A DNA stretch of 64,000 nt from Pseudogymnoascus verrucosus. Lineage: Eukaryota. Shown in pieces: positions 15,164 to 58,525 of this stretch. The number at the start of each line of letters is the position of its first letter. Position 1 is the stretch's first letter. A model generated the notes under the pieces. The model was not told the origin of the DNA, made no database searches, and saw nothing but the letters and a program-made list of their open reading frames with translations. The DNA lies in assembly GCA_001662655.1 (NCBI GenBank), contig KV460208.1; one strand, 5' to 3'. A program made the translations under genes and the position numbers.

Positions 15164-16130
15164 TCACACAACGATGGCAGCTCGGTCTGCCCCTCGGCCC
15201 AGAAATAGACGCACTATATCGTCGTGGCCCAACATGACAGCGACATGTAAAGGAGTGCATCCCGTCATATCTCGCATATGAAGACACTCTAGGCGACGGT
15301 CTACCAGCAGCTGAGCTGGAGCATGTGCACCAGTCAGCACGGCGACATGAAGTGGTGTCCGGCCTTGGTTGTCTTGGAGCTCTAAATCTGCCTCATAGTC
15401 CAATAGCGCGAGGACGACATCGATATGCAGCCCTGCGGTAGCGATGTGCAGGGCGGATTGACCATGATCCGTTAAGAGATCAACGTCTGCAGGGTGTGTT
15501 TTCAGGAGCAACCGCACGGTGCTGGCCTGCCCATAGTAGGCTGCGAGATGCAGTGCGTTGTAGCCTGAAAGCTTATCCGGGTCCCCGAGCCAAAGTAGGT
15601 TTTTGAGATCATGCATTATGTAGGATGTGTTGTTGAACGGCTGATCATTACTGAATAGCATGGTGTCCACAACATTATGGTTGTCATTGTGGCCTTCGTC
15701 GATAGGAGCAGGAACATCCAGGGCCTGAACCTGGTTTTGCCCTTGATCCTGTTGTTCTGGTAGAGGTAGATTGTATGTTTCGGAGACTTGATCCGTAATA
15801 GTGAGGCAATCCCGAGACTGGGTCTTGGATTTGGACGTTGGTGGGGATCGCCGGTCCTGCTGCTGCTTCTCTTGCCAGACTCGTGCTGGCGGCCGAGGGA
15901 TGGTATAAGGTTGGGTCCAGGTAACGGTGTCGCTGATATGTTGCGACGAGTGACGCTTCCGCTTCTCGCCTGGCATGACAAGGATGTGGGTCAACATTTG
16001 CTCGTGCTCCGGTGGTACAGCAACGCGGACGGGGACAATACCTACGATGATTGCGCTGTGCTATTCTGTTCTGCAACCGTCTCCGCTCCGCTGCGTTCAT
16101 GTCATTTATATCAGAATGATGGAGAAGCAT
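15164..16130 (-). CDS. bZIP-basic-region plus ankyrin-repeat transcription factor (bANK type, ToxE/Aps2-like)
   Basis: Exon 1 MLLHHSDINDMNAAERRRLQNRIAQRNHR (basic region); GT-AG intron ~16045-15970; exon 2 has four ankyrin repeats (GYNALHLAA, GQSALHIA, GRTPLHVAV, GCTPLHVAV). No clear leucine zipper. Confidence 0.85.
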
Positions 16131-18015
16131 TCTGTCGTCTGAGAAGTGATCTTTACGCGGCGAAGCTGAGCATATAGATTCCTATTTCCTGACTAGGGGC
16201 CAGATCCCCAGCGTCCTTCAGAACAAGCCAGAACGCCATGTTTCCTCCCCCACGACAAGGGTCCCAGCAAGGAAGCTGCGAAGATGGGATGGCAGGCCAC
16301 AAAGCATATCCAATTGCTAACGAACGATGAGCCTATGACATAGACACGGATACGTCACCGTCTTGCCCGTCTTGACTCAATGGCCATAGCCAACCATGTA
16401 AGCATTCCGCCATCTACTGATCTATGTCGCCAGCCGCAACCAGTGCTGGCCGTGATATCTCCGTATTCCAGCACCTGCAAAACTATTGGTTACATCGTCC
16501 CATCTGTTGCATTGAAGGATTGGCATCCTTCCATCCTAAACTCAGATAACTTACCTAAAATAAGGGCTGCATGCAACTGATCTGTCGATTACGGCGCTAG
16601 ATATGCTAGATACTCACGTCAGGCCGCTTGGCGACTAGTGTTAGTCACGATGTCTCTGCAGTCCAGCAAATACAAATCTCCTGGTCACATTAAGAGCACA
16701 TATAATGGTTGGCACATATAATGGTTGATATACAGGGTCATGGATAGCAGTGGAGCCCTACCAATTATTACCCGTAGATACCCCCCAAGGTAAGATGCAC
16801 CATTACTAAAGAGGAAAATGATGACATGCGTGAGGTACTGTATCTTCAGGGGATCGTTTAGGTTATGTTTTAGGCGCAGGGGCGCATCAGGGTCTGGCAC
16901 CTTGCATCAAAGGATTTCCCAGGATTGTGGACCCGACGGACCCGAGCCAGTCCGAAGGAATTCACGATGCAAAAACCATGTAGTCGCGAGTTTGAGCTGC
17001 GCCTCGAGCTTGCTCTCCTTCCCTTTTTTCCGAGGATCAGACGGGCAATTGTAGGGCACCATTATGTTTAAGAAACAGCGCCACGGCATCCCATGCTAAC
17101 GCCATTTTGGGACGGCCTGCCCAAGATGGAAGCTCATAAGGACCCTACTTCCACTATTCCTTAAGTAATCTGATCCCATGTTTCCACGGGCAACATATGC
17201 CGGATATGTCTTACATGTAGGCATGCATGTGAAACGCTTCTGACCATCGACGGGGAACTCGGTAAATGATTCCCCATGTGGCCAAGAAGGTGAGAATGAG
17301 ACGAGAACAATTATCGAGGGTGTGATAGTAGTGAGAAACACCGTTTGGATGCCCGAGAAGTCTTAATATGAAACTTTCACTAGCGGGTAAATTCAGCGAT
17401 CCACAGAGTGGAAGAGTCAGCTTCAATACAGGAATCTTCAGCCACCCGTGTTAAGCATATATGTTCCTATAATTATTTAGTCAAATAGTGCTTTACCACC
17501 TTGGCCCCCACGCAGGTATCTCCACCCTGTTGCTATGATTGGGTTGTAAATGTCTCAGTGCGTCGCGGAATTGTCCGAGCAATTATGGAGCTACCTTCGT
17601 ATATTTTGAGGCACAATACGAGACAACGTAAGCTCAAAAATATCTGTAGATTATCTGCCAGTAAAGATTCTTCAGATCTACATGTGTGGCTTCAGGTAGA
17701 GGAGGACCATCTGTAAATGCCGCCGGTTCCGTTTTCGGTCAAGTGGAAGTGGTTGGTGCGTATTTAGCTCAAGTCTAACGAACTAAAGGTGCATCGATTG
17801 CCTAGCGCTGGACCGCTGCTAATGACCGTTGAACGGGTTCCGGATTGGGAACGAGTCGGTCCGACCCGAGAGCATAAACGCTCCCTCAACTGCAGGATCG
17901 ACATTACCCACGAACCGCGCCTAAATCCAGTGCCATGTAGCGCTATCATCACCTTATTGAGTATGATACGGGACTCTATCTACCATCAACACTACGCAGT
18001 TATTTATAATAGCTT

Positions 18016-18140
18016 GGCAGATGCTTCGCTTCCGTGGCAAATGCTTCTCTTTCGTGTTAGACGCCTCTCTTCCGTAGCAGATGCTTCTCACCCATCGCCG
18101 ATGTTTCTCTTTCGTGGCAGATGCTTTGCTTCCGTGGCAG
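18016..18140 (+). repeat. degenerate ~20-nt tandem repeat (GGCAGATGCTTCGCTTCCGT) upstream of the second ankyrin gene
   Basis: About 5-6 imperfect copies are visible between 18016 and 18140. Confidence 0.65.
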
Positions 18141-18223
18141 CATTTAATCTATACAGGAGGCCTGGAGAGGATCACTTCCTCATGAGTCGTGCGATTTCTC
18201 GACTTGTGCAATCTTGAAAGCAA

Positions 18224-19258
18224 ATGTCCAACCGACGGCCGCGCCTGCCACCCAAACCAGGGAACCCCTCGGGCCAGGAGAAGAGCGGTAGGTAACGCCA
18301 CAAGTTACCATATATAATTTTTTGAGCTACCATAATGTAGCGAGTCGGTGCCAGACTGACAATGATTACAGATTTTCCGCAGCCCAGCCAGAGCTTAGAA
18401 AGCCGCAGACAAACCCGCCATGCCCCAAAGGAGCTGGTATGGACAGAGCCACGTACTATTCCAGCAGCTGTCCACAAGAACGCCCCAATATATTCGACGC
18501 CGCCGAATGAGATTCTGTTGAGCAGGGATGGCGAAATAACAGACTTAATGAAACCGCTTTGTGCGTTACAGGACGGCTTAGCACAGAGCTGGAAGACGAA
18601 TTCGGAGTTCCTCGATCTTGAGAACATGTCAGATGTGGCAGACGACCTCGATGATGTCCAAAGCTTCTTTAATTATCCCACACCACTACCCGTTGTTGGA
18701 CCCGTAACTACACGTTCCCTCGAATCAATGGACCAGCAATCTTACCAACTGCACCTCAGCTCAAACCACATGGGCAGCCACATACAAACCAGCAATAGCG
18801 AGGATATGAGTGATAACTCCTCACCTTCGTGCGAGTTGGCACGTCTCAATGGGTTTAGTGCTGTCCATCTCGCTGCGTACTTTGGAAAGCTTTCCATCAT
18901 TCGCCTTGTTCTGTCAACTTCTCCTGAAGATGCAGACTTACTCAACAACAACGCCCAAGCTCCTCTTCACATTGCGGCTTCTGAGGGCCACGCCGAAGTA
19001 GTGGGCGAGCTCCTCCGTTTAGGTGCAAATGCGACCCAGCAAGACAATGATGGGCGCACAGTTTTGCACGTAGCAGTGTTAAAGGGACGTTTGAACATTG
19101 TGCGCTTACTGCTGCGCAGCGTTGACGCTCAAGGTATAATCAGCATGGCGGACAACGCTGGGAAGACTCCTTTGCACCTTGCCGTAATGCAAGGGCGCAA
19201 TCAAATTGTGCAAGTACTGTTAGAGAGGGGTGCAAATACACGAACTCCAATCCGTTAG
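18224..19258 (+). CDS. ankyrin-repeat protein, paralog of the bANK regulator, no intact basic region
   Basis: Probable ATG 18224 (MSNRRPRLPPKP...), intron GTAGGT 18287 to ~18370, then ORF 18362..19258 with four ankyrin repeats (GFSAVHLAAYFG, QAPLHIAA, GRTVLHVAV, GKTPLHLAV). Shares WT[EQ]PxTIP with the 15164..16130 protein. Confidence 0.8.
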
Positions 19259-20783
19259 GGAACAGAAGAGCCGATAAATACTACATAGAACGATTGGAAT
19301 AATTAGACAATTCAATTTACTACTGTACTACTACTCAATATACTGTACTGTTGTGAAGCCAGCTTCCGTTTGTGCCAGGAGACATTTTCGTTCACCGGGG
19401 AAATGCGCCAAAAATTAAGTGCAGTTCTCCACAACCCTGAAATATGCTCAACGGCTTTAACCTTGAGTACCCCTCACTCCTGACCATCGGATAAAGCGGC
19501 AAGAGACGTCGGGTTCTCTGCGGCAAAACTTCCCCGAACAAAGCTACGTACGTAGGGTTTGAGACATCAGGGGCCCCGCACCCCACGCACCCCACGACGA
19601 GTCTGGAGGAGCTGTTAAGCCACGAATCCTTTAGTTGCTATCTTTCTGCATATGCACAGACTATGGTGCAAGAGTCATGGCACAGTACTGAGTAAATACG
19701 GTGCGAATGATGCAGCTACGCTAGGCCAAGGACTGAGACATACCCTGCAGAAGGAATACGATATAGAGTGAGTGGGGAGGAGGCGCTTCAACTAGCTCGA
19801 TATTACTATAAACACACACCCTTCCCTGACAAGGGTAAAAATAGACCCGATTGGGGAGGAGCGGACGCTAAGACGCGCGTCCTAGCGTCAGATGGAGGCT
19901 GCGCTGATGTGTGCGCTAAAGAATCAAGCATGACCCCAGTAACGATCTGATAGTCTTGGTAGCCGCCTCATTGGTTGATCGGCAATGGATGGCCGTTTCC
20001 CGCTCAGGCTCGGTGGTGATATTGGGTGATATTTGGTGATATTGATGAATAGCGTGGCACCAAGTATTCCGAGTGCTGTTGAGCAGAGCTATTGATTTGG
20101 GTTAAGGAAAAACGAAAGAAACCCAGCCTCCAGACAGCGGCCAGATTGGTGATGAAAGGGGGACATTTTCATAATAATTTTATGACAGATTAATAAACGA
20201 CCAGGAAACAATTAACTGCCTCTTCAACAATGACCATAGCTAATACGAATCTCATTACTTGATGGTATCATGGACGTTCAAGTTCTAGAGCAGGCGAATA
20301 GGTGAGACAGAAAGGCCCTCAGCGAGTTGGTAACAGAAGATTCACACGATTGTATATTTTGGAATATGGGTACTCCCTCAGAGACATATATTGCCTACTT
20401 TACAGCCTGTTGGCCATGAGTGAGCTGCCACTCCAGGGGTCCAGGGGGCTAGGTTATAAGGCCGCGGGACACTCCGGACGATATGCCACCCCATTTCGGG
20501 TCATAAGCTGCGAAGCTCTTCTGTTCGTTGGATGTGCGAACCAAAGCGGACTCAGACCATAAACAGCAAGACTCCCAATCACATCCAGCTCTACGGCTAA
20601 TACCCAACTTATTCCCACAGGACCCTGCTGAGGCGGTGTATTTTATATACTCAGAGTCCGCAGGTATAAGTATGCCGTCTGCCAAGTAACTTGGCCCTTC
20701 GGATTCCAAAGTCAGCTTACTTCACTTGCTCTACCAGCGCCTTTCCTTTTTTATACTAGGGATCTCAGCCATAGTCCTCGCCC

Positions 20784-21825
20784 ATGGACAGTGCACACAG
20801 GGCATCTGCCATTGCGCAGATTGTCTTTTACGCACCGACTGTCCCGGCGACTTTGTACGTGGGCATCCGAGCCTGGAAGTATGGACCACGCCTGGCGTGG
20901 TATCCTGCCATGGCATTTGCATGTGGTAGGATGACTGGAATCCAGCTGAGGATTGGTGCGAGGTTGCTAACAACTATGATGCAGCCCGACTTACTGGCGG
21001 CGCTCTTGTTCTCGCGAGCCAACACGACCCCGAAAATACCCACCTACTTACCGCTACTATCGTCCTGCTCAACATCGGTCTTGTCCCGCTTATTATGCCA
21101 TTTCACGCCTTGACTCGTATCGTGTAAGTCAAAACATCTTGCTCTCTATCATACAAGTATCGTTTCTAAAACCCAGATGTTTCCACAGAGTACAAGCAAG
21201 CTTCCCAGGCGATCGGAGAAAGAACATGTTCCTTAGAGTTACTAGATTCCTGCTTTTTGCCTCTGTTTTACTCCTATCTGTTTCTGGGGGCTTATATGGC
21301 AACCCGGATCGCTCTAAGGTGCAGTCAACACTATCCAGGGTTGCATATTTCGAATTTGCCTTTGTTCTCGTAGCACTATTTGGCATGGCTGCTTGGCTAT
21401 ACTTTGTGGCCCGAGACAAGATTCAGGACGGTCAAGTCATTGTATGTATAACCCACCATTCCACGTCAGTATCCATAACCCTAGTGCCGCAAAATATTGA
21501 CCTTCAACCTCAGTATATCAAGTGGCTGCTTATTGCTTCTCCAATTCTCTGCATCCGTACCGTATTCGGGATTATCAGTGTGTTTGAGGCCACGGGCAAA
21601 CACTTCCTTACTTCGATATGGAGTCCGATGTTTGGTAACGCGGTTCTCTTCTCGCTCATGGCCCTTGTGCCCGAATTCATCGTACTTTGTATTTTTGTCT
21701 ACCTCGGACATTATCGTTACAGCACGGCTGACCAGTATGGGTTGGTTCCGCGGAAGGGGTTGTTCGAGAGGAGCGGCAAGAAGGATGAGGGAGAGCAAAC
21801 GAGCGATTCAGTCAAGATGACATGA
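20784..21825 (+). CDS. RTA1-like multi-pass integral membrane protein
   Basis: Spliced ORFs 20784.. and 21139..21825 encode about 7 hydrophobic segments ending ...PILCIRTVFG...LMALVPEFIV, typical of RTA1-like fungal membrane proteins. Confidence 0.7.
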
Positions 21826-22079
21826 TTATGCCAGAATTCTAGAGCAGGGCTGGATTTTTAGGAGACGATAAATTATTTTTATTCTGAAGACATTTTATAT
21901 TTTTATTGATTTAATAAATAACATTCAATAACAATGAAGTCGTGGACGTAATAATTTTACCCTAGAGATATTGATATCAATACCACACCACGTCGCCGTA
22001 TATTAATTTCATAATTATTTTTACTGCCTTCAGTCTTTACATGCAAGTATTGCCCAAAAGTCTATCATTCCTTGCTCTA

Positions 22080-22484
22080 TTATTCCTTTTTCTTATGCGC
22101 GATCACTCCATCAACCCTCTTCCACGCTCTAATCCCCTCCACAGCGCAACTAATCTCCCACATCCACCAAACCCTCGACCACCTTCTCACCCCATGTCTC
22201 CGCATCCGCAACTGGTCAAACAGCACCACCTCTCCCGCATGAGCAAAGGCAAGTAAAGGCACAAGAGTGCGAGCCATCCAAAGCGCCTGTTCGGCGCCGC
22301 CGGGAAAGTACTGCGTAAGCAGGTTCCATATGTGGTCTCCCGGTGTAATCCACGGCGATGCTACTCCCGTACCGAAGAGAGCTAGCATGCAGCCGATGAC
22401 GAACCAGTCCAGGGGGGACGGTGTTGCGTATTCCGTGATAGTTATGGCGCTGGTATTGACATTGTTGCGGCGGTAGCTAGTCAT
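22080..22484 (-). CDS. small integral membrane protein (134 aa), resembles the C-terminal membrane part of fungal DUF2470 proteins
   Basis: Single ORF with hydrophobic helices and the motif AHAGE..F...RMRRHGV..WS.VWW.W..SCAVEG..AW.R. Confidence 0.65.
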   Translation of the reverse strand: MTSYRRNNVNTSAITITEYATPSPLDWFVIGCMLALFGTGVASPWITPGDHIWNLLTQYFPGGAEQALWMARTLVPLLAFAHAGEVVLFDQLRMRRHGVRRWSRVWWMWEISCAVEGIRAWKRVDGVIAHKKKE

Positions 22485-23000
22485 TTTGACAGTATGGGTG
22501 AATGGTGGAAAGTGTACGTGAACTTGTAACCAAAGAAATTGCTGTATTGTGCTGGGAGTACTTGTACTTGTAGTTGAAAAGAATGCGGCTTTGGAAGGAG
22601 ACGTTCAGAGTTTGTCAATTTCCAATGTTTAAGAGATTGTTGGCGCGTGAAAAAAATCGGAGGTGGCCACCGAACTTTATATATTCGCCTTGGGGACTGC
22701 GGCTGCCCTCTTTGTTCGGCTGATCGACTCGGAGGGGCTGACAGGCACCTATAAGGACCTACCGTAAAACGATTAGATCTTATTCTGATATCCGAAAACG
22801 ACGTGTAATTTGCATAGATCACAGAGGCATCCAGTAAAAGGAAGACATGGGAATTTAATCATGCCGATTTGTGATTCTAAATTACAATATTCCAAGATTA
22901 TCTAACCAGCTTGCCCGCCGAGATGATCAATAAACAGGAAAGATAAAACAACGCTCGACGCCGCCTCTATATAATATACGCCAAGCCAATCTCGCGGCAA

Positions 23001-24429
23001 CTATCTACGGGCCATAGACAGGCTGGGTTGCCGTCCAATGAGCAGCTGAAATGCAATAACGACGCCCTTAGCGGTCTCGACGGGATTCACCACATCAATG
23101 AATGCCCTGACTCCGAGAAACCCTCCCTGATACGTCCTGGGATAAGTTTCTCCAGGCTCGCGCTCGCATGCTTCGCCAGCCGGCCCATACTTGTAAGGGG
23201 CCACGGGGTACGCCCAGATGACGAGGAGAGAGATGGGAACCATCTCCAGGCAGCTGAGAAGAGCCGGAATGCCAATGTTTAAGTCGGCGTAGGTGAGCTT
23301 ATCGGTGGGATTCAGCACGGGGGTACTTTCGAGGATCCAGAAGATAATCTGCACATAATTATGTTAGCAATGGTGTTCTTGGTGGTGATAGTTGCTCTTG
23401 TTCTCTCGAGGTAGTTGGACTCACCCTTTGAGTGAAACCGAGGCCAACAACAAGCTTAGCGGAAAGAAGCTTGAAAATAAGCCTCTGCTGCGGCATATGA
23501 GGCTTCATGGTCAGTGCGACGAATACCACCGATACGAAGGCAATGGTCGGCGAGATACTGTCGATAATGGCGAGCTATAGTAGAAAGTGTTAACACCAAG
23601 CAACAGTCTGGTAAAAGGCGGCAATAAAGAGCGTGCTCACCCATAGTTTGGCGTAGCGCGGCATGATCTTGTACTGGCAAAAGACGCCGACTGCTTCGGT
23701 CACGACGGTTGCGATTGCGCATAGCACCGAAATGAGGACGTATTGAAAGACGCAAATCCAGCGTTGCTATAGTGTGATGGTTAGTAAATATCATGCATTG
23801 CCAAAGAGGCGGGGAGCATATAAAATCCGAGGAAAGAACTTACTCGGAACCATTTCGCGCCGTCCATCCCCTGTTTTCGAGCCCTCTTATCCTTGAGCTC
23901 AATAGTAGAAAAGAAGAGATCCCTCCCATGGTCGTGGGGCGACACATATTCGCAGAGAAGGAGGAAGTAGGCGGCTAGGCAGCTGGCCGTGAAGACGTCA
24001 AGCCAAGGGAGGAGGTAGACGGCAGCGTTGGGCAAGCAGATGCAGAGGAAGCAGATGATGGAGTAGGAGGGGACGAGAAGAGCGACTCTCATGATCCTAG
24101 ATAAGGCAAAGTTTGTCAGTAAAAAAATTGAGAGCGACAAAATAGGGCAACATATGAACGCTAGTAGTGGGCGTACTTTAGTTGTTCGCGGGGCACGCTG
24201 AGATGTGTCGCGTGGTTAAGCAAGTGCAGGAAAATAGCGATGACAGCAAACGCAGCGGATGCGCCGCCCAGTATCATGTCAAATGTGTAGAAGGTCATGG
24301 ACCCGAAACTTGGCGAGGTAGCATCTGCACGGGGGTTAAAAAATTGTTATTTCATAGATTCCCCTTCAGCTTTCAGCTTTGCTTACCTGCGGAAAGGTCG
24401 TGTACTGGGCACGACGCCGAATTACCCAT
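23001..24429 (-). CDS. organic solute transporter Ost-alpha / TMEM184 (DUF300) family protein
   Basis: Multi-exon model from ATG 24429: MGNSASCPV...HATHLSVPREQLKIMRVALLVPSYSII...FLLLCEYV...WICVFQY...LSCLEMVPISLLVIWAYPVAPY...YQGGFLG.RAF.DVVNP. Confidence 0.85.
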
Positions 24430-26025
24430 CTTTGCGTGTGTATAGCGCTGTTTGCGCTGGAAATTTCACTTGTGCCCAACCCAAAAAAAAGAAAGAAGGG
24501 TAGCTGGCGATGAATCGTAAAATCGGCGGCAGTACAAAGGCAGCTGGCGAAGAGTTATAAAATTCAGTTGGACACGAAGGTGAACAACGTCTCTTTTTGT
24601 CTCTAATTGTAAAAACAACAAAGAAAAAAACTTGGGCAAGCAGCTTTGGGGATAAAAACTCCCAGGGTGGCCCTGCGGTTCCATATATGCAAGCACTCAC
24701 TCGGGCAGCATCTACAGTGCGCACTGTGATGACAGGGCAGTCCTAGCGACCTCCTGAGACGGTTTGTCTTACCACGGTCCAACAGCACTCCAACAGCACT
24801 GAAAGCAATCTCACCGAGGGCAATCCCACACGCCATTGGCCTACTGAATGTGCCTCCATAATTACTGTATAGCCACATCGTGGGGGCATGCGTAATGGCC
24901 CTACGTCCTGCCATTGCACATAGTACTGTGCTAGTATTGTTGTGTAGTGTTGTATTGATGATTGTACCATATCCGGCACTAGCAAGGGGTAAGATCTCGT
25001 TCCCAAATAGGAAGAGCGAGAGCGAGCCACTTTTAGATCACGCAGAACCCCGAAACCCCGAGAGTGTAGCAGCAACATTAGGCGGCGACCACTCAAAACC
25101 CAGGCCGCGCGGTTGGGGTATGAGTCTCGTACCCGATTAGGAAACGAGTCGATGCAAACGAGTCGATGCGATGTGACATGGCACGTAAAATACCTCCTTG
25201 CAGAATTTACTTAGCTATCAGGGCCACAGAACATGATTATATCAGTCAGCGAGCACACACTGCAACCACCCAAGCCACCAGTTTTCTCGCAGGGACCATT
25301 TGGTGTCCAACGTCAGATAACCTTCCCGCTCCATAGATTTCCCCCATACCCTCCCTGTAGGACAAGCCTAACCAAGGCGACCGTTAAGGCTTGGGCTACT
25401 TTAGTTTCGATCAACACGGCTACGCTAGGACGGCTTACATCCTTGGCCGATGGCAGGTCAAGGGTCCCTGTTTAGTGTGACAGAAGGCATAAAAGTGTGA
25501 GTGGAGCCTCCAGGGACAGGACTAGAACTGGGATAACCTTGCCGCTTTTGTTATTTCCACACCGCGTCAGCCGTGGGGTCCTATTTCGTATCGGCCGATA
25601 GCTGATATTGTCGCGCGACTAAATCCGCCGTGTAACCCGAAGCAGTATCTTTCAAGGTAGCACAGTACGCAAGATGCCGCGTGTAAGGAACGGGCTGGCC
25701 TGGGGGGAGTTTAGCCTGTTCTCGCCTTTAGTTCCGCACCAAGAGCCGAGCTCACTTTTCCCCTTCCTTCCGTCAACGACAGGCCTTCCCACCTGGCGCC
25801 TTACAGGGCCGAGTGGGATGAACTTGAGAGCTTTCCTCTACTTCATTTTATTTCATATTTTATCTTTCTTATTTGACTTTTATATAGTCATGGCTGTTGA
25901 CTAACGAGCTGTTAATATACACGCTTGGGAAGTTATAATTATTTATTTCATATACTAAAGCTAATCCATTTTCATATGTCACGAATAGACTCACTTTGGC
26001 CCAAAACAATAGCCAAATAACTACG

Positions 26026-27673
26026 CTATCTTCTCCATAACGCAACCTTGACACCGCCAAAGTGACTGAACGTCAGGGCTAGATTTTCCCGAAAAACGCC
26101 CCCTCGCGGCTCTATCTGTTTAAAGCTCTGCACAAGACGAGTAACAACATATCCGGCTTCCATCAACGCGCTTTGTTGTCCTAAACATATGCGTGGACCG
26201 CCGTTAAAAGGAAGATACGCCCAGCCCGGCCGCAGCGGCTTCTCCGAGTCCAGCCAACGGCCAGGATGGAAGTCTTCCGCATTGGATCCGTAAACCTCGG
26301 GCAAGCGGTGCATCGTCCATACACCGTAGCTCAATGCTGTGCCTTTGGCGATGAACACCGGGGATTTTCCGTCCGGCCCGCCGCCGCGCGGGATGGTGGT
26401 ATGGCGGCTTGCGAAGCGCATGTTTAGAGGAACCGGAGGATGTAGGCGGAGGGCTGTTGACCAGGTTAGCACTCTTTCAATTTGAATCTTCGTCGCGCGG
26501 ACAGCAAATACACCAATGTATAGAGAATATACTCACTTTCGTCTAAAACGGCCCTGAGATATCGCATTCTCTTCAGAGTATCGTAATTTGGGAGCTCACC
26601 CCCCAAGTCATCCACCTCGGCCACCAGCTTACGCCAGACTTCCGGGGATCGGGCCAGAAAGTACATGATACTACTTAACAATCCAGCAGTTGTATCTCGA
26701 GCGGCCAGTAGGACATTCAATAGCTCATTTCGTAGCTGGATGGGATCACTGCACACCGCAGAGAGCTCAGACAGGAGGTTGTATCGTTTGGCCTTCACGT
26801 CACCACTACCAAGGGCAGCCCCTCCTTTCTTAGTACTGAGAAATTCAGCAATATAGTTATCAACAACGGAGTGAACAATGTCGCAGGAAGACTCAAACTT
26901 GGCATCTCGCATGAGGAAGGCTAGCTTTCCAAGCCGCAGCCGATCATTCGAGCGGCTCTCAGCATAGTCCCAGGCCTCGGAAAAATACTCCATGCTTGGA
27001 TCTGTCTGACAGTTAATGGAGCGCCCCAGCAGGAACTCTGTAGCGTTATCTATGGTGAAATTGAAAAACAAATGCTGCATGTCCACGGTGCCGCCATCCT
27101 CGGGTAGTTTCTTGATGAGATTCTGGACGTGCGTTTCGATGCTGTCCAGGTCGGCTACTTGAGCCCTGGTGAAACTTGGCCGAATAAGAGCCTGTGGTCA
27201 ATTTTAGCCTCTGGTTCAGCATCAGATTCCAATAGACAGACTCTGGAATGCTCCCAATGAACGCCATCAGTGGTAAAAATACCCCTCCCCATCAGCCTTC
27301 CCATGGCGCTCATTCGGGGACCAACAACAAAATCGTCGAAGTTTGTGGCGAGAATGGATTTTACGTTCTCTGGCTCGCATGTTGATACAAATGTTTGGCC
27401 CATGAGATTTATCGTCATTGTGCGGGCCACGGTCAAGCTGCGCCGGACATTGGTCTCAAGTGCCTTTCTCTCAACGGCATTTTGCTTGATAGTCTTGAAG
27501 AGGTCCAGACCCAGAATCGGATCGAGCTGGGGAAGCCGTGTCGGCGGTTTACAACCGTGCAGTCTTTTAAACGTCGATGTCTCTACTGAATATATGACCC
27601 GACGTACAATGGCATAGCCGATCAGGCCGATCAGCGCTATGAAAATGCTCTGGCGGAGGTTCAATGAGTCCAT
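26026..27673 (-). CDS. cytochrome P450, CYP52-clan (alkane/fatty-acid omega-hydroxylase-like)
   Basis: Three exons: TCEPENVKSILATNFDDF, GIFTTDG.HWEHSR, I-helix LLNVLLAARDTTA, LRLHPPVP.N.R, TTIPRGGGPDGKSP and heme motif YLPFNGGPRICLG. Confidence 0.92.
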
Positions 27674-39600: not shown

Positions 39601-42600
39601 CCATGATCGTACTTATTGGAATGAGTCTCGAGCGACCAAGTCGATGTACCAGCGTACTGAGCGTCACCACGAACTGCTTGGTGTTAGGCTTGACGGCGGT
39701 GAACATGACTTCCGCTGGAGGAACTTCATCAAGCCTTCCGAAATGCCTTGGCTACGCGGACATCAAGTCCAGGGCCAGATGGTGTTCCCGGGAGCTGGGT
39801 TTGCCAGTATGGCCTTCGAAGCTTGTAAAGCCCTGGCGCCACTTGAGCAGATATCTATGATTGAGCTCATTGATCTTCGCGTTAGTCGCGCCATGGCCCT
39901 TACTGACGAGAGCCCTGGCGTTGAGTCTCTGGTGACTCTGTCCAATGTTCAAAGAGATGGGAAGAACGGCGTCATTTTCTGTGACTATGAGTGCTCCATT
40001 TGCCCAACCCCTGACAGTGTACCTGTCCGTGCTTCAACTGGTAGCATCCGTCTCGAACTCGGAACCGTTTCTTTGGAATCTCTTCCCTCGCGGAATGCTT
40101 TGGGCTTGGACATGAACAATGTCGACATGGATCACTTCTATAACTCGCTGGCAGCCCTGGGCTACAATTACAGCGACATGTTCACGGGCATCAGTTCTCT
40201 GAAGCGAACCACCGACACGGCTTCCGGGATTATCCATATTGACGGGGCGGAGGGTTATGATCCTGCCTTCATTTTCCACCCCGCGCCTCTAGATGTCGCT
40301 TTTCAATCTATCTTCGGAGCACTAGGTGCACCCGGCGATGGTCGTCTCTGGACTGTTCTGGTACCAACCTTGATATCTAGAATCAGAGTCAACCCACATG
40401 CTTGCCGAAACGCAGGATTAGGCATGGACATGCCTTTCGATTCCGTTATTTCGGTTACTCCATCCAATGGAGTTTCTGGTGACGTCGATATCTGCGATCA
40501 GGATGGTAATACTCTGGTGCAGGTTGAACGTCTACACGTTTCGCCCCTTACCGCTACCACCGAGCAAGATGATAGGCACATGTTCTCTTCTACGGAATGG
40601 ACTCCCTTTTACCCGGATGCCACCAAGGACTTCTCTAAGTGGGTTCTAAGTGAGGAGGAACACGGCCACATGGTATTTATTGAGCGGGCATGCTTTCTTT
40701 ACATGAAGCGAGTCCATGATGTCCTTACTCAGGAAGAACGTGAGAACTGCGACTGGCATCGCAAGAAGTACCTTGCCTGGGTGGCTGAAATTGTGGGAGA
40801 AGTTGCCGAGGGCAGGCATCCAACTGTCAGCAAGGAGTGCATGAATGACACCTGGGAAGAGATGAAAGACGAGCTTGAGGACTTTTGCTCATTATATCCC
40901 GACTTCCGCCTGCTAATTGTTGTCGGTGATAATCTCGTTGGCTGGATGCGTGGCGAGGTAGACTTCCTTGAGATGTACCGTGAAACAGGCATGCTTGAGC
41001 ACATCTACAAGAACACCTACGGTTTCCCCGAGTATAATGCTTACCTAGGTAAGCTGGTTCGCCAACTGTCCCAAAGGTTCCGTCAAATGGACATCCTTGA
41101 GATCGGAGCTGGTACTGGATCGGCGACCGAGGCAATTATGAGCCGCATTGGCGATAGCTATGCTTCGTACTCCTATACTGACATCTCGGCGGGCTTCTTC
41201 CTCGAAGCTAAGGATATTTTTAACAAGCAGGGAGACAAGTTTGCCTACACCACTTTTGACGTGGAGAAGGATCCCATTGCCCAAGGTTACGCCGAGCACA
41301 GCTATGACCTGGTTGTGGCATCCAACGTCCTACACGCGACCAAGTCTTTAGAGACCACGTTGACCAATGCCAGGAAGCTTCTCAAGCCCGGCGGGTACCT
41401 TGTCATTCTTGAGATCACTGACACGGATCCTCTACGACCTACTTTCTTCTTTGGCACGCTTTCCGGTTGGTGGGTTGGCGAGACGGATGGACGTCCTCAT
41501 CATCCTCTCCTCACACAGGCGAAATGGGACGCTGTCCTCCGAAAGTCTGGCTTCTCTGGACTTGACACGGCAACTCCTCCTTCGGGCGAGTTCATGGTGC
41601 CTCAAAGCATCATGCTCAGCCAAGCTGTGGACACACAAATGAATCTCATTCGTCAGCCGTTCTCCCCCAAGAGCAACGTGCAGCTGGATGACTTACTTGT
41701 CCTTGGTGGCCAGTCCATGTCTAGCTTCCAACTTCAGGAGGATATCATAGCCTTGCTGCAGCCTATTGCAAAGAATATCACTTTTGTAGAAAACCTCGAT
41801 CTTTTGGAAGAATCCCACTTCACTTCGAAGCAGATCACTCTCAGTCTTCTGGAACTTGACGAGCCTGTCTTCAACCCCTTCACGCCTGCCAAATGGGCCG
41901 GTTTACAGCTGTTTAGCGAAAAGGCCCAGAATGTCCTTTGGATCACTCAGGGAGGTAGTGGCGAACATCCATACGCAAACATGATGATCGGCGTTGCACG
42001 TTGCTTGACATGCGAGAAGCCCGATCTACGATTCCAAACCATTGATTTCGACGCTATAGACAGTCTTAATCCCCAAATGATTGCCGAGGCAGTGTTGCGC
42101 CTACATATTTCCGATACTTGGGGCTCATTTGTCGAGGCATATGATACAGCCTGGCTTCTGGAACGTGAAATCCGTGTCATTGGTGGAGAGATGACAGTCC
42201 CCCGTTATATTCCAAACAAGGTTTTGGATGGTCGATATAATTCATCGCGCCGAACAGTCCAGAAGGATACTAACCTGAACGGCTCTGTTATTGCTATCTC
42301 CGCCGGAGAGGCGTCCTATGAGCTCCAGCAGGTTGTGACACCAGAATGGGAAGCTTTTACTAACTCGGGTCTTGCAGAAATAAAGGTAGAGCGATCCTCA
42401 CTAGCGACAGTCAGCTTGGGATCCTTTGGATCGCTTTTCTTGACAATCGGAAAGCTGAGCGGTTCGGGAGAGAAGGTTCTTGCGTTCTCAGACTTAAATG
42501 CATCAGTCGTCAGTGTTCCCAAAGCCTGGGCTATTGCCTATAACGGAACCGGCGAAGAAGACTTGGGTGTTCTAAAGGCGGCCTTTGACGTCTCCTTGGC

Positions 42601-45600
42601 TCAAACTCTCATTACTGCGATAACGCCGTCAAGCGCACTTCTTGTCTATGAGCCTACGGCTGAGCTTGCAGAAGCACTCAAAGAGATCGCCGCGGATCAA
42701 GGCAAAAACGTCACTTGCACCACCTCGAGGACAGAAATTGCAAACAAGGATATCCTATACATCCATCCGTCAACCCATGCAAGAGCCCTTGCTTCAATAT
42801 TCCCCAAAAGGTTGACTGCATTTGTGGACCTCTCTGGCCGAGGACATACAGGAAGCCTTGCTCCCCGTATTGAGAAACAACTACCTATCCAGTGTCGGCG
42901 ATTGGACGTTGCCGATTTGATCGGCAGACAAGCTTTCACACGGCCTTCTGGTAACGAAGATACTGTGGTCAATGTCCTAAAGCGTACTTTATCATACGCT
43001 ATTGCCCATCCTAGCAGCTCTGCTGAAGAGTTTCCAGTAGGTGATATGACCGGGCAGACACTCGCGAACTTCGATGCCCGCGTGAAGGTGCTGAACTGGA
43101 CTACCAGCGAGACACTTCCCGTCAATCTGTCTCCCCCTGAGGACGTCATCCAGTTCCGTTCCGACAAGACCTACTGGCTGGTTGGCCTTGCTGGACAGCT
43201 GGGTCTTTCCATTTGTCAATGGATGGTCAAGCGTGGAGCTCGTCATGTTGCTTTGTCTTCTAGAACCCCCAAGATCAGCGAGAAGTGGCTCAAGTTTGTT
43301 CAGGCTGACGGCGCAGAGGTGCGCGCAGTGCCTTGGTATGTAAAATTTTCACCCCTTTCCACATAATTTTAGTTTGTAACTAACGAACTGGTCACTCTTA
43401 TCAGCGATGTCACTGATCGTCGATCGGTCATGCGGGCTCACAAGGCCATTTGTGACACAATGCCACCCATCGCAGGTGTTGCCAATGGTGCTATGATTTT
43501 AAACGATGGAATCATTGCACAGCAGCCTCATGATATGTTCAACCAGACTCTCAAGCCCAAGGTTGACGGCACGCGCTTCTTGAACGACATCTTCAGCAAG
43601 CCTACGCTTGACTTCTTCGTGGTCTTTTCTTCCCTTGCCTACGTGACCGGAAACATTGGTCAGTCCAGCTATGCTGCTGCCAATGCATTCATGGCCAGCG
43701 TCGTCGAGGGTCGCCGTAAACGCGGCCTTGCTGGAAGTGTCATGAACCTTGCCGGGATCTTTGGTATTGGGTACATCACCCGCACAGATCGTGGCATCAT
43801 TGAGCGTCTCGGAAAGATGGGGTACTCCAACGTGTCTGAGTGGGATTTCCTACAGTTCTTTGCGGAGTCCGTCAACGCCGGCCACCCTAATGTAGGATCT
43901 GGTCATGATCACGAAATCTCATCGAGTCTCAGACCGTATGACCCTAGCCGAGATGAAAATCCTCCGGCCTGGCTTAATATCCCCCGCTTCTGCTACTATA
44001 AGCGTTCTACGGCTCTCTCTTCCGCCCAGGAGGATGGCAAGAATGAATCTGTGCGCTCTCAGCTCAAGGAGCAGAAGACCAAAGATGACGTTTACAAGGT
44101 GCTACTTGCTGGTCTCACAGCCGTCTTGTACAAGAATCTCGGTCTGCGACCAGAAGACAACAATATTGCCCCTCATACTCGACTTATTGAGCTCGGGATC
44201 GATTCTCTTGTTGCTGTGGACATGAGATTCTGGTTTACCAAGGAACTGGATCTTGACATGCCCGTGCTAAAGCTGCTGGGAGGCGCATCAGTAGAGGAGA
44301 TGGTCCAGGACACGATGGAGCGACTGTCACCAGAACTTACCCCTAACTGGGTTAAAGAGCCGGCAGAAGCGGAGGCCTCTACGGGTGAAGAAGAGGTGCC
44401 GACTATTGTCATCCCAGACGACGACAGTACGTCCAACGGCTCCCCGTTGAGTGTCAGCGAGAATGAGACCCCCGATAGTGAGGCCACCACGCCGCCAGCT
44501 AGTCGCAGTCTCTCGGAAGCCGGTTATCCCAAAGAGGGACTATCGACACCGCCACTGGATCTAGAGCTAGAGCTTGCGTTCGAACGGAAGGTGAAGATGT
44601 CGTACCCTTCTTTGCAGTTCTGGTTTCTGATCCAACATCTAGGACAAGACGCCCCCCACGCTTTCAACGTCAGCTTCCGAGTCGCTCTGAAGGGCAGAAT
44701 GGACATCAGCCGCATGGAGGAGGCAGTCAAGTCGCTTGGAGAGAGACACGACGCACTTCGCACTGCTTTCTTTGACGACTCCGAGAATGATTACGAGCCT
44801 ACCCAAGGCGTCTTGTCACTCGACAACTCCCCATTACGCCTAGAGGTTCAGAAGATTGCTAGTTTACAGGAGGCCATTGACTTCAATGAGAAACTTGACC
44901 ACTATGTGTTCGATATCCAGCGTGGTCGTACCATCCGCATGGCAATGCTTTCGGAAAGTGATACTGCCCATTACCTTATCCTTGGATTCCATCACATTGC
45001 CATGGATGGTTTCAGCTTCGACGTCTTTTTGCGCGAGCTTGGTGCGCTATATGAAGGCAAGGCGCTGCCTCCCGTGACAATCCAGTGGAACGATTTGATG
45101 GAAGAACAGCGACTTGGCGTCGGGAATGGATTATTCAAAGCGGAAACAGACTACTGGCGGTCTACTCTCGCCACGATTCCTGACCCTATCCCGATGCTCC
45201 CAATGGCCAGATCTCAAACCCGAGTGTCTGTCACAAAATTTGCCTTCGAGGAGTGCCCTATAACAGTCTTAGATGAGAAGACTGTCAGGGGTATTCGCGA
45301 GCGCTGCCGTGAGATGAAGGTGACGCGCTATCACTTTTTCCTGTCTATTCTGCGCATCATGCTATTTGAACTTACAGACGTTGAGGAACTATGCATTGGA
45401 ACTGTCGACGCCAATCGAGGTGACAGTCGCGCGTCGAGTACCATTGGCCTTATGGTTAACGTCTTGCCCATGAAGTTCCAGCGCAGCACCAATAAGAGCT
45501 TCACTCAATTAACACAGGAGGGCCGTGACCAGGCCTATGCCGCTCTTGCGAACTCCAGGCTCCCTTTCAAGGCCATGCTGGATCAGCTTGCAGTTCCTCG

Positions 45601-48600
45601 CTCGACTCAATGCTCGCCAATCTTCCAGGTAGTCTTGGACTATCTGCCGCACAAAATCGAGACCCCCGAAGGCCTGGGAGCCCCTGGAGATGAAGTTAAG
45701 GCTACTCTGAACTACAGTTTGGCCGACATGGTTATTGATGTCAACGATATTTCGTCGACCGAGATCCGCCTTCGCTGGCGCGGACAGACTTCTTTGTACT
45801 CCGAGCGAGCAGTTAAATTGATGCTGGATATGTTTACTGAGCTAGTCAAGAAATATGCTGTTGCCGATCCGAAGCTGCTAGTCGATGGCAGTAAGCTCAC
45901 GTTATATAATTCAGCCCAGGTTCAAGCTGCCACAGGGATTGCTCTAGGTAAGTCAGCTTCTCGATACTAACTTTATACTCGAGGGGTGGTGGGGAGGAGG
46001 ACAATTTTGCTAACAGCTTATTACAGGCTCCTCTATGGTATCTCAGTGGGGACCAACTGTCTCTCACGTCATTGATGAGAACAGCGTCACCCATCCCGAT
46101 ACTCCTGCTCTGAAGGATGGTCTCGGAAACTCTCTCACATATTCTCAAGCATCCAAGCGTGTCAATCAGATTGCTAACGCGCTTCTGGAGTCTGGCATCG
46201 AGCACCGTCGCGTGGCCGGGTACCAAGAGCCCACCGCGGATTGGGTCTGCTCACTTCTTGCAGTGTGGAAGATTGGTGCTGCTTACGTGCCACTGGACTC
46301 GAGACAGCCTACCGCAAGAATCGCCGTCATGCTAGCCGGTTGCAATCCATCGGCCGTCGTTTGCCACCAGGAAACAGTTGACAATTTGACTGGTATTAAC
46401 GGCGACGCCATTGTTATCAATATTTCTGATCTTCCTTCTATGTCAACCACTGTGGAATCTCTAGCCACCAAGGCAAAGCCAGAGCAACCAGCGCTTCTCA
46501 TCTTTACATCTGGATCCACCGGAACTCCAAAGGCCGTCGAAGTCCGTCACTCCAGCTTGAAGAACATTATCGAGGGTGTCACAGCCACGTATGGGTTTGA
46601 CCAAGCGAGACAGACAGTCCTCCAGCACAGCGCGCATAGCTTTGACATTTGCTTCGGACAGATCCTTCTAGGTCTCTGCAACCGTGGAAGCGTCTTTGTT
46701 GCGCCCAAGGATAAGCGTGCGGATCCTTTGGAGCTGTGTAAAATCGTTCGAGATGAGAAGATCACCATCGTCATGTCCACTCCTGGTGAGTACAGCCAGT
46801 GGCTTCGTTTTGGCAGGTCCGAGCTCCAGGCCGCGGATTCTTGGAAATTCGGATTCTCTGGTGGTGAAGCAATGCACGGCTCTCTCAAGGCTGCCTTCAA
46901 TGACCTTGGTATGGATGTGACTTTGATCAACGCCTACGGCCCAGCTGAGACGATCATTCTAAGTACAACAAAGGTTGTAGACTACAAGAATGAAACTAGC
47001 GACTACTCAGAAGCTGTTTCCATCGGCAAGCCCATTCCCAACTCTGGAGTTTTCATCGTTGACAGGAACATGAAACCGGTTCCCAGCGGGGTCACCGGCG
47101 AGATTGTCATTACAGGTGCAGGCGTAGCTAATGGCTACTACGGCCAGAGCGAGCTCACCAAAGCCACTTTCATTCGTGATACTCTCACCCCAAGTGGATA
47201 CTCTGCTAACTACGGCGGTGGTGTTATGGCGAAGATGTATCGCACCGGCGACAGCGGTCGCTATGATGAAAATGGCGAGCTGCACTTTGAAGGACGAATC
47301 GCCGGTGACTCCCAGGTCAAGCTAAACGGGATCCGTATTGAGATAAAGGAAATCGAGTCTGTCATTGTCAAGACCTCCGCCGGTGTGCTCCACGACACTA
47401 TCGTCTCGGTGCGTCGAAACCCGGACTTTCTTGTCGCCCATGTCGAGTTCGCCCAACCACTGGAGCAAGCCGAGCAGAAGAGCTTTCTGTCGTCTCTTCT
47501 TGCGCGCCTCCCACTTCCCAAGTACATGAGTCCCGCTTTGCTTGTGCCGATTGATGCAATTCCTCTCACACCGCATGGCAAAGCCGATAGAAAGGCTGTG
47601 CAAGCACTCCCATTGCCAACCCGCGACGATGACGGCAATGAGCAGAGTCTCACTGAGACGGAGCGCGCTTTGAAGAACCTCTGGATAGAGGCTCTTCCCG
47701 AGGAGTGCACTCTTGCCGTTGCTATCAAGCCTGAAACCGAATTTTTTAACCTTGGTGGCGGCTCCTATCTTCTAGTCCTAATTCAGGGACTAATCCGCAA
47801 ACGCTTCCATGTCCTGATACCTGTTATGAAACTCTTTGACGCCAGCAGTCTACGGGACATGGCTTCAAAAATTGATGCTGCGGCTGCTATCGCAGCCGTT
47901 GATTGGGAAGCAGAGATAGCTCTGGAAGAGGGTCTCAAAGCCGGAACTAATACACCGAACAGAAAGCCTTCATCAGGCGAGGGTCTTATCGTGGTACTCA
48001 CGGGTGCCACCGGATACCTGGGCAAACGATTGCTGCGGGAGCTGATCGAGAATAAGGCAGTATCTAGGGTCCACTGTGTTGCTTTTCGCGGCACTGACAA
48101 GGACTCAGTCTTGGAGCCAGTCCCAGAAGACTTCAGGTCTCGCGTGGAAGTTCACTCGGGCGACCTAGCCTCACCTTTACTCGGCCTGGAGGCCGAAACG
48201 TTCAACGCTTTGGCCCTGGAAGCCGACGTTATTATTCATAGCGGTGCTAACCGATCGTTCTGGGACTACTATCAGTCGCTTCGTGGACCGAACGTCGTCT
48301 CGACGAAGACGCTGGTCAAAATGGCCGCTATTGGTTCTACCCCCGTCCACTTTATCTCCAGTGGCGGATTGATCCAGCCCGGTTTAGACGCAGAAAGTTC
48401 CCCGGCATCGATTACAGATATCGGAGCACCTCCCATCGACGGATCCAATGGTTATATTGCTTCCAAATGGGCGTCTGAGGCGTACCTAGAGCGCGCTGGC
48501 CGCGAACTTGGTTTGCCGGTTTATATTCACCGAGTTACCCGTGCACCTGCTCAGGATGATACCAGTCCGACTGCTCTGCCGGAGGGCCTTATTTCTGACT

Positions 48601-48974
48601 TCCTCGACCTCACCTTCAAGCTTAAAGCTGTCCCGCAGCCTCAGGGCTGGCGCGGCTCTTTCGACCTGCTGCGAACATCGGAGTTGTCGCATCAGCTAGT
48701 GGACAGCTTTATCCAGTCGTCGGCCGACCCGACCAACGATAGTGAGAGGGTTCAATATGTTCACTATCCTTCGACCGTCCGCTTACAAATGGAGAATGTG
48801 GTGGAAGGGTTACAAGCTGCCAAGCAGGTGGCCAATGGTGATGATGTGGAAGGTTTCGAGACCCTCCCCCCACATGTTTGGGTCGGCAAGGCAAAGAAGG
48901 TCGGCCTAGATTGGCATTTCGCTGGCCAGGACTTTTCGGCATTTGGGGCCGAGGGTGTTTCATTGAGAAGATAG
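36689..48974 (+). CDS. hybrid iterative PKS-NRPS, KS-AT-DH-CMeT-(inactive ER)-KR-ACP-C-A-T-R, roughly 3,980 aa
   Basis: Six exons. [130 protein letters not shown]...YIASK. Confidence 0.97.
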
Positions 48975-58340: not shown

Positions 58341-58525
58341 CGTCGAGACTTGCACTGTAAATTTCAAAACATCGACGAAATATCCTAAACTCTTGATTTT
58401 GATCTGAACTCTTTTGCCAAAATAATTTTTGACATTTCTGCGTTTCTTTTGTACATTTCTATGGCCACCTCACTCAGATGCAAATACAGGATTATCCTCG
58501 CATGCAACTCGAGATCCAGCGACGT

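Follow-up and report, generated by a model that had tools for sequence, protein, structure and literature searches.

A contiguous cluster of 11 protein genes lies at positions 15164-48974 (33,811 bp) of a 64,000-nucleotide stretch of DNA from the soil-dwelling fungus Pseudogymnoascus verrucosus (contig KV460208.1, assembly GCA_001662655.1), which in its full length we call the window, and it is built around a hybrid of polyketide synthase and nonribosomal peptide synthetase (PKS-NRPS). We consider it rather probable that this cluster is an expressed PKS-NRPS core of the bua (burnettramic acid) type, combined with finishing genes that differ from those of bua. The cluster is an orphan; the core is of a kind already described, with new finishing enzymes. 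The original prediction for this DNA had described a complete and contiguous cluster comprising the PKS-NRPS, a trans-acting enoyl reductase (ER), two cytochromes P450, an ATP-grasp protein, a PydY-like protein, three membrane proteins and two ankyrin proteins. All 11 genes were located, and the completeness and contiguity of the cluster were borne out by Pfam matches and by an exon map.

The megasynthase gene (36689-48974, + strand) encodes a protein of 3985 aa with the domain order KS-AT-DH-cMT-KR-ACP-C-A-T-R. A P. verrucosus protein that likewise has 3985 aa and is annotated as 'putative Hybrid PKS-NRPS biosynthetic cluster' matches the A-T-R exon at 100% identity and maps onto the window as six exons from 36689 to 48971, followed by the stop codon. 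The expectation that all catalytic motifs of the megasynthase are intact held: 15 of 16 motif patterns were matched, and the remaining one, A8, was missed by the pattern but is visible in the sequence by eye. In the PKS half, these motifs include the KS Cys and two His, AT GHSxG, DH HxxxGxxxxP, cMT, KR, and ACP, and in the NRPS half, C HHxxxDG, A3, A5, A7, A10, the T Ser, and the R-domain motifs TGxTGxxG and YxxSK. Pfam found no ER domain in the megasynthase. A trans-acting ER of 372 aa, matched by Pfam ADH_N and ADH_zinc_N, is encoded by a single exon at 28371-29489 (+).

The kinship of this core is with bua. Over its full length, the megasynthase is 51% identical to BuaA in Swiss-Prot (BUAA_PETAA; 2059 of 4033 alignment columns). 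By domain, identity to the Aspergillus alliaceus orthologue, whose 90% cluster includes the Swiss-Prot entry 'Hybrid PKS-NRPS synthetase buaA', is 75% in KS, 67% in KR-ACP, and 45% in both C and A-T-R. The closest relatives are synthetases of Lasiosphaeris hirsuta, Cercophora newfieldiana, and Coniothyrium glycines (79-83% in KS, 51-54% in A-T-R). Sister clusters have also been recorded in a FunBGCeX mining survey, in which a PydY hidden Markov model (HMM) was run over 1990 fungal genomes, and in the table of which Pseudogymnoascus has nine rows, a PKS-NRPS being the core in eight (PMC11109268). For five of these clusters the survey gives bua as the closest known biosynthetic gene cluster (BGC), with scores of 28.5-29.8, against 99.4 for the A. 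alliaceus cluster; three others, including that of P. verrucosus, were merged with a non-reducing PKS (NR-PKS) and scored 36.7-36.8 to fusarubin (PMC11109268). The cluster of isolate WSF 3629 is listed with 11 genes and 33,758 bp, and that of 05NY08 with 6 genes and 22,965 bp (PMC11109268), the latter a length equal to the span from the first P450 gene (P450A) to the PKS-NRPS here. The claim of an unfamiliar toolkit that founds a new family of cyclised metabolites was not supported, since the core is of the bua type and five sister clusters are closest to bua.

The survey score is the average identity multiplied by the fraction of the known cluster's genes that are matched at 45% identity or more (PMC11109268). 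Scoring of three Pseudogymnoascus clusters against fusarubin follows from their merging with the neighbouring NR-PKS. If the bua cluster has seven genes, as we take it to have, a score of about 29 would fit four bua genes matched at about 52%, a set that the synthetase, the ER, and the two P450s would make up. The likeness to bua of A. burnettii and A. alliaceus further comprises the megasynthase architecture, with identical NADPH and Tyr/Lys motifs in the R domain, the presence of a trans-acting ER and two P450s, putative counterparts of BuaC, BuaD, and BuaG, the absence of an alpha/beta-hydrolase, and a PydY-family gene that adjoins the synthetase gene in both. In contrast to bua, the cluster here is without a glycosyltransferase (BuaB) and a 2-oxoglutarate (2OG)-type proline hydroxylase (BuaE), carries further genes (for the ATP-grasp, DUF7702, and Ost-alpha-like proteins, the small membrane protein, and both ankyrin proteins), and differs in its A-domain pocket residues; the published similarity of its sister clusters to bua is low as well. 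With Pfam, neither a BuaB-type glycosyltransferase nor a BuaE-type 2OG oxygenase was found among the 80 open reading frames (ORFs) of at least 85 aa at 9600-36700 and 48900-51250, and the same set of ORFs gave no match to an alpha/beta-hydrolase, a flavin-dependent (FAD) monooxygenase, or a methyltransferase. The absences that had been predicted therefore stand for the hydrolase and the FAD monooxygenase and only in part for a transporter, as the first ankyrin gene has a major facilitator superfamily (MFS) gene (11941-13480, +; Pfam MFS_1, E 2e-25) some 1.7 kb away.

Between the ankyrin genes and the megasynthase lie the membrane-protein, tailoring, and small-protein genes. The DUF7702 gene (20784-21825, +; Pfam DUF7702, E 1.3e-7) encodes a multi-pass membrane protein of about 305 aa and has two introns, and it is followed by an ORF at 22080-22484 (-) for a small hydrophobic membrane protein of 134 aa, a putative cluster member that had no Pfam or NCBIfam match. 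An Ost-alpha/Solute_trans_a membrane protein of 332 aa (23001-24298, -; four introns) was matched by Pfam Solute_trans_a on three exons. A crude hydrophobicity scan gave at least five membrane segments for the DUF7702 protein, at least six for the Ost-alpha protein, and one for the 134-aa protein. P450A (26026-27688, -; 509 aa, two introns) was matched by Pfam p450 on two exons, with a weak match on the N-terminal exon, and P450B (30519-32306, +; 552 aa, two introns) was matched with E 7e-62. What these matches show for the two enzymes, predicted to be CYP52-like and CYP617-like, is membership in Pfam p450. Within the cluster interval, Pfam matched 13 of the 19 large stop-to-stop ORFs, and more exons in a later pass; the six unmatched ORFs comprise three coding exons (exon 1 of the first ankyrin gene, the small membrane protein, and the exon of the PydY-like protein) together with non-coding or antisense ORFs.

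Nine cluster genes are transcribed, as contigs of public runs indicate. Four sequencing runs (X1-X4) were mapped over 20600-38200 (17.6 kb), which extends from just before the DUF7702 gene into the first part of the PKS-NRPS gene; among the runs that cover 27800-37500, none is recorded as RNA. Contigs of X3 join 10 intron-like gaps, two in the DUF7702 gene (20925/20987 and 21123/21189), four in the Ost-alpha gene, two in P450A (26453/26537 and 27190/27241), one in P450B (30735/30789), and one in the PydY-family gene. X1 holds three such joints, namely the same P450B joint, the second P450B intron (30860/30937), and one of the four Ost-alpha joints, so that X1 and X3 together give 11 distinct joints. 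Most of these read GT..AG on the coding strand, some only within a tolerance of one or two bases; at the first DUF7702 joint the ends are GT..CC, with two letters in excess, and the model is open with a 2-base shift. The spliced models of the Ost-alpha, P450A, P450B, DUF7702, and PydY-family (182 aa) proteins are all open. X3 contigs also cover the intron-less ER gene (unspliced, 1466 bases) and ATP-grasp gene (1773 bases), and diverged X3 contigs cover part of the 134-aa gene. Of 30 bins, the three in which X3 had no depth lie between genes (24709-25882 and 35862-36448), and among the 17 pieces of X3, 10 are at least 99% alike. X2 and X4 behave like genomic DNA in that they continue through introns and spacers. 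From the joints, we infer that spliced transcripts of a close relative are present in X3 and X1. Contigs of this kind cannot rank expression. The proposed check on co-expression of the accessory genes spoke for the cluster, with transcript contigs of nine genes.

The most distinctive of the finishing genes is that of the ATP-grasp protein (33429-34841, +; 470 aa, single exon; Pfam ATP-grasp_3). A profile of the family, searched against the PDB, gave LdmS (7r8p/7r8q) as the best of four matches (E 3e-11). The AlphaFold2 (AF2) model, with a pLDDT of 92.9, was matched by Foldseek to LdmS over the whole chain (E 3e-22, target-normalised TM 0.74-0.76), and the top Foldseek matches were LdmS and a Streptomyces peptide ligase. 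Columns that are invariant in 36 of 36 aligned sequences include K228, D356, D368, N370, and R372, which we take to be nucleotide- and Mg-binding residues. LdmS (SAOUHSC_02373), the L-aspartate-L-methionine ligase of Staphylococcus aureus, thus shares the ATP-grasp fold and the best profile match, but it is only 16-17% identical, and the setting here is that of a fungal PKS. The NCBIfam LdmS model scored 47 bits against a cut-off of 475, and therefore the protein is not an LdmS equivalog but a distant cousin. Taken from sequence profiles and a predicted fold, these matches mark the protein as a carboxylate-amine-ligase-like enzyme, and they make the earlier suggestion of a 'possibly amide-extended' product a reasonable one.

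The protein collection holds 37 relatives of this enzyme. Two, at 96% and 89% identity, are from Pseudogymnoascus-like sources; others are from Hirsutella minnesotensis (69%), Cytospora mali (46%), and many lichen-forming fungi (about 38-48%), and some at 35-36% are named 'solid-state culture specific protein'. By sequence, the enzyme appears to belong to no characterised fungal family. Among stand-alone fungal ATP-grasp enzymes of natural-product clusters, a 2025 report counts only three, FsqD and AnkG (both proposed) and Cp1B (validated), and describes Cp1B as coupling a non-amino-acid carboxylate to an L-amino acid (PMC12568646). The report describes Cp1B as annotated hypothetical and without detectable identity to other characterised ATP-grasp enzymes (PMC12568646). 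Cp1B and Cp2B (E-64), AnkG, and FsqD thus resemble the protein here as stand-alone fungal ATP-grasp enzymes within a cluster, and the chemistry of Cp1B is that which we propose below; Cp1B differs in being of another sequence family, as the protein here is of ATP-grasp_3 and the PDB profile search returned no Cp1B entry. In the open-access literature, we found no fungal cluster that pairs an ATP-grasp enzyme with a PKS-NRPS or a highly reducing PKS (HR-PKS), and no report on this Pseudogymnoascus cluster. The statement that no characterised cluster has the same accessory genes is in keeping with our searches, which found none.

Homologues of this ATP-grasp gene recur in other polyketide settings. 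Metagenome contigs scanned with the family alignment gave 15 loci, which were searched by tblastn with 24 protein pieces from the window, and 21 neighbouring ORFs were examined with Pfam. ATP-grasp homologues (35-47% identity) were found in 13 of the 15 loci, six of the 15 being too short to show neighbours. A P450A homologue (30-40%) lies directly downstream of the ATP-grasp gene in five loci (L008, L009, L011, L012, and L013). Only in L011 is the flank on that side long enough, and there homologues of the ER (38-46%), the DUF7702 protein, and P450B (35%) are present too, with the DUF7702 gene between the other two. In L002, L003, and L013 there is a PKS with 66-69% KS identity, separated from the ATP-grasp gene by an FSH1/LovG-type hydrolase, and a short-chain dehydrogenase/reductase (SDR) lies behind the ATP-grasp gene. 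The L003 PKS frame runs more than 100 aa past the ACP to the end of the locus, which makes a further domain likely. Pieces of ATP-binding cassette (ABC) transporters are present in four loci, and L013 carries two ATP-grasp paralogues (2680-4062 and 11180-12616). As an observation in its own right, the loci outline a metagenome cluster type with a PKS, an FSH1/LovG-like hydrolase, an ATP-grasp protein, an SDR, an ABC transporter, a second ATP-grasp protein, a P450, an ER, a DUF7702 protein, and a P450; we are aware of no product described for such clusters.

The 15 metagenome loci yielded no PydY-like gene, not even at a suspected ORF downstream of the ATP-grasp gene in L001, and thus the ATP-grasp and PydY-like genes travel separately. 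In four other Pseudogymnoascus genomes, the two have consecutive locus tags. Together, these loci and tags agree with the expected co-occurrence of the accessory genes with PKS-NRPS genes. That the ATP-grasp gene recurs with P450, ER, DUF7702, and PKS genes whether or not a PydY-like gene is present speaks for its acting on the polyketide as a tailoring enzyme.

The second finishing gene of particular interest, which lies 931 bases upstream of the PKS-NRPS start, encodes the PydY-family small protein (35159-35758, -; one intron). Its upstream exon, MAAPQEKSVHDLNGQWKF, was predicted from homologues and also found by HMM, and it is joined through a GC-AG intron of 51 nt (35654-35704, -; GCAAGT...TTAG), the joint of which is present in an X3 contig. 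Public annotations of the orthologues are without exon 1 and begin at an internal Met, which gives 153 aa. For the 164-aa ORF there was no Pfam family, a PDB search with the protein alone gave chance matches only, and an ESM Atlas search returned only unnamed fungal clusters. A profile search gathered 816 representative proteins, mostly of 150-230 aa, and in the PDB a profile of 69 members matched proteins that bind fatty acids and retinoids, with a best E of 1.4e-5. The AF2 model (pLDDT 95) had FABP5, FABP3, and CRABP as its top Foldseek matches, with target-normalised TM values of up to 0.75. On these models, the protein has the fold of a fatty-acid-binding protein (FABP), and a lipid-binding role would fit such a fold.

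Judged from indirect evidence, the assignment of the small protein to the PydY family appears right. The PydY HMM is reported to flag orthologous BGCs in eight Pseudogymnoascus genomes (PMC11109268), the 6-gene versions of which hold no other domainless gene. As a domainless protein of about 180 aa inside a BGC, the small protein resembles PydY and its homologues (ScpY, PN3-20, g73/CHGG_01244, and MGG_15096). It differs in that its closest named relatives are in bua-type clusters, which make linear chains; outside Pseudogymnoascus, these relatives (55-57%) are from Lasiosphaeris, Cercophora, and Coniothyrium, and in Coniothyrium the locus tags of the PKS-NRPS and the small protein are three apart. 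In addition, the third-best family match (ETB97_008324 / BDW43DRAFT_310754 / QBE85648.1), which is called hypothetical, has tags and an accession consecutive with those of BuaA. The survey selected the A. alliaceus cluster, with its score of 99.4 to bua, for holding a PydY homologue, and it counts 31 PydY-containing clusters as closest to bua, among 30 of which, as shown, 13 have PKS-NRPS and 17 have HR-PKS or other cores (PMC11109268).

A pericyclase or cyclisation role does not follow from the family label, and in this respect the predicted 'PydY-like pericyclase' holds for its first half only. PydY is the pyrrocidine pericyclase, and the survey authors note that its homologues may have other functions (PMC11109268). 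In the Discosia chaetoglobosin P cluster, for example, g73 (the orthologue of CHGG_01244 in C. globosum, and a PydY homologue) is described as 'hypothetical' and is separate from the Diels-Alderase g68 (CHGG_01241) (PMC7399079). PydY homologues that stand beside a separate Diels-Alderase indicate that family membership does not imply pericyclase activity. The burnettramic acid chain is linear, saturated, and hydroxylated (PMC9685919, PMC7421883), and so a PydY-family gene beside buaA likewise does not imply such a role. The hydrolase and the lipocalin-like protein that partner PydY in the pyrrocidine route are not in the window.

The amino acid and the mode of release bear on what the core would make. 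With pocket positions anchored by hand on motif rules, the A-domain pocket reads DIGMFGAILK here, DVQHFSVV-K in BuaA, and DMGLFGVLWK in the closest orthologues; these residues differ, and therefore the amino acid loaded is probably not the proline of BuaA, a point for which a pocket read by hand is weak evidence. The R domain keeps TGATGYLG and GYIASK, and BuaA and all 15 relatives examined keep the Tyr and Lys. An intact NADPH motif and Ser-Tyr-Lys triad are reported to separate reducing R domains from Dieckmann cyclases, the R domain of CpaS having Leu in place of the Tyr (PMC5667575, PMC3202784). Burnettramic acid is nonetheless described as a product of Dieckmann release by the R domain (PMC9685919). 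Because BuaA has the same motifs, the triad does not discriminate between the modes of release, and reductive release is a live alternative. A putative Knoevenagelase hydrolase is described as kept in pyrrolinone-type clusters and absent from those of the tetramate type (PMC7421883), so that its absence here favours a tetramate. The lack of an alpha/beta-hydrolase, which had been noted as a departure from known clusters, is accordingly no oddity, as tetramate-type clusters are likewise without one.

How might such a cluster work? The megasynthase and the trans-acting ER would build a methylated, largely reduced polyketide chain and condense it with an amino acid, probably not proline. Release would most likely be by Dieckmann cyclisation to an acyl-tetramic acid, by analogy with what is reported for BuaA. 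The two P450s may then oxidise the chain, as BuaG does in bua, where it is reported to hydroxylate the chain before glycosylation (PMC9685919). In place of the bua mannosyltransferase, the ATP-grasp enzyme would phosphorylate a carboxylate, most plausibly one formed at the chain end when a P450 over-oxidises it, and couple it to an amino acid or amine. The FABP-fold protein, as modelled, may bind the hydrophobic chain and act as its chaperone or present it to the tailoring enzymes, and could possibly be a catalyst. The Ost-alpha-like protein, or the neighbouring MFS protein, is a candidate exporter of the product, and the first ankyrin protein would be the putative switch that turns the cluster on.

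It is tempting to generalise this scheme, and we offer the generalisation only as a tentative possibility: the ATP-grasp protein would found a new fungal ligase family that caps oxidised polyketides with amino acids, on PKS-NRPS and HR-PKS products alike, to give 'two-headed' lipo-amino-acid tetramates, and most PydY-family proteins would be FABP-fold chaperones of lipid chains, not pericyclases. Several observations weigh against the main reading itself, that of a bua-type core with other finishing genes. The homology of the ER and the P450s to BuaC, BuaD, and BuaG is a putative one, derived from the published score. The carboxylate at the chain end is a guess. In the R domain, the NADPH motif and the Tyr and Lys are intact, which the literature takes as a sign of reductive release. 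The metagenome loci hold the ligase without a PydY-like partner. None of the 37 matches to the ATP-grasp protein is from Lasiosphaeris, Cercophora, Coniothyrium, or the bua-bearing Aspergilli, and its nearest solved relative ligates two free amino acids, which fits a role in making a building block equally well.

That last role, in which the ATP-grasp enzyme acts upstream and supplies a dipeptide or modified amino acid to the A domain, or else makes a separate small peptide, is one that we regard as decidedly unlikely. The nearest solved and curated relative is indeed an L-Asp-L-Met ligase, and a pocket that differs from that of BuaA at most positions is compatible with an unusual substrate, but the protein falls far below the LdmS equivalog cut-off (47 against 475 bits). 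Its homologues also stand beside a PKS and an FSH1/LovG-type hydrolase, with no NRPS visible in the loci (the L003 frame, as noted, continues past the ACP), and the two paralogues in L013 look more like serial tailoring. It is very unlikely, in our view, that the ATP-grasp and membrane-protein genes are mere bystanders, and that the PKS-NRPS, the ER, and the two P450s, perhaps with the small protein, make a plain hydroxylated compound like the burnettramic aglycone. FunBGCeX does delimit only 6-7 genes in four Pseudogymnoascus genomes, and the fungi with the closest PKS-NRPS yielded no ATP-grasp homologue; the 6-gene span of 05NY08, however, equals P450A to PKS-NRPS here and contains the ATP-grasp gene. 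Moreover, the gene recurs with homologues of P450A, the ER, DUF7702, P450B, and the PKS in unrelated contigs, and its contig is from the same run (X3) as its spliced neighbours.

Unlikely, but to be taken seriously, is a route in which reductive release of an amino-aldehyde leads to a pyrrolinone and a PydY-like pericyclase then gives a new carbocyclised family akin to the pyrrocidines and hirsutellones. The intact TGATGYLG and GYIASK motifs are of the pattern tied to reducing R domains (PMC5667575), and the small protein is in a family detected by the published HMM of a pyrrocidine pericyclase (PMC11109268). Nor would the lack of a hydrolase be fatal to such a route, as deletion of the hydrolase in the xenoacremone pathway left the end products (PMC8642415). 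Against this, BuaA, which is reported to release by Dieckmann cyclisation (PMC9685919), has the same R motifs, and BuaA is also the closest characterised synthetase that we found, at 51%, with a PydY-family gene beside its own. The chaetoglobosin homologue of PydY is separate from the Diels-Alderase (PMC7399079), the survey authors allow for other functions (PMC11109268), and none of the 80 ORFs is an alpha/beta-hydrolase. The bua-type core with a different finishing set is the reading that we prefer.

The two ankyrin genes lie at the left end of the cluster. The first (15164-16127, -; Pfam Ank, E 5e-26; start codon read from the sequence) carries the basic motif RRRLQNRIAQRNHRR in exon 1, the sole match in the window to NR.AQ[RK]. 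Regulators of the bANK (ToxE-like) kind combine a bZIP-type basic region, without the zipper, with ankyrin repeats, and the first gene is, by its sequence, a putative pathway regulator of this kind. The second (18362-19258, +; Pfam Ank, E 8e-27) is a paralogue, its ankyrin part being 47% identical to the first gene over 133 aa; it showed no basic region by NR.AQ[RK], and no K/R-rich stretch was found at 16400-18400. Of the two ankyrin regulators that had been proposed, both have the repeats, but the basic DNA-binding motif was found in one only.

The surroundings had been called unrelated, which is only partly right. The MFS gene stands on the left, and on the right lies a second BGC, with an NR-PKS of the order SAT-KS-AT-PT-ACP-ACP-R at 51193-58469 (-), an AflR-like Zn2Cys6 regulator at 60783-62447 (+), and an O-methyltransferase gene from 63190 onward (63190-64000, -). 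We considered a super-cluster of the PKS-NRPS and the NR-PKS and rejected it, as in WSF 3629 the cluster has no core enzyme other than the PKS-NRPS and is well away from the ends of its contig of 385 kb; adjacency to the NR-PKS is not kept in that isolate. Between the two synthase genes, at 49380-50468 (+), three short overlapping ORFs, one of them with a weak protein-kinase match (E 6e-7, below the cut-off), may be an intron-bearing kinase-like gene or a remnant. Between the ER and P450B genes there is a tRNA gene at 30012-30094 (+; Rfam RF00005, 47.8 bits, E 7e-9), which at 83 nt probably has a short intron; its anticodon looks by eye like AAC (Val). Unlike Rfam, ARAGORN in its bacterial setting found no tRNA at 30012-30094, and short high-depth contigs with loose ends at 30011-30114 fit a multi-copy tRNA. 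At the far left of the window are the 3' end of an AMP-binding (acyl-CoA-synthetase-like) gene (1-1028, +) and an ORF of 1050 aa with only a weak leucine-rich-repeat match (6025-9177, -), in a stretch that is richer in GC (58-60%).

Among antifungal lipids, burnettramic acids and epicoccamides are of a rare 'two-headed' kind, and the cluster probably makes a variant of this known lipid-like antibiotic class and not a wholly new class. If the proposal is true, an amide formed by an ATP-grasp enzyme in place of a sugar cap would extend the burnettramic/epicoccamide class, and the enzyme would represent a second, unrelated family of stand-alone fungal amide-forming enzymes. Amide-forming ligases are sought as biocatalysts. 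The FABP fold, together with a PydY-family gene beside buaA, counsels caution in reading every PydY homologue as a pericyclase. The cluster is compact, RNA-derived contigs have placed its introns, and at least one public data set contains its transcripts, all of which makes it a practical mining target.

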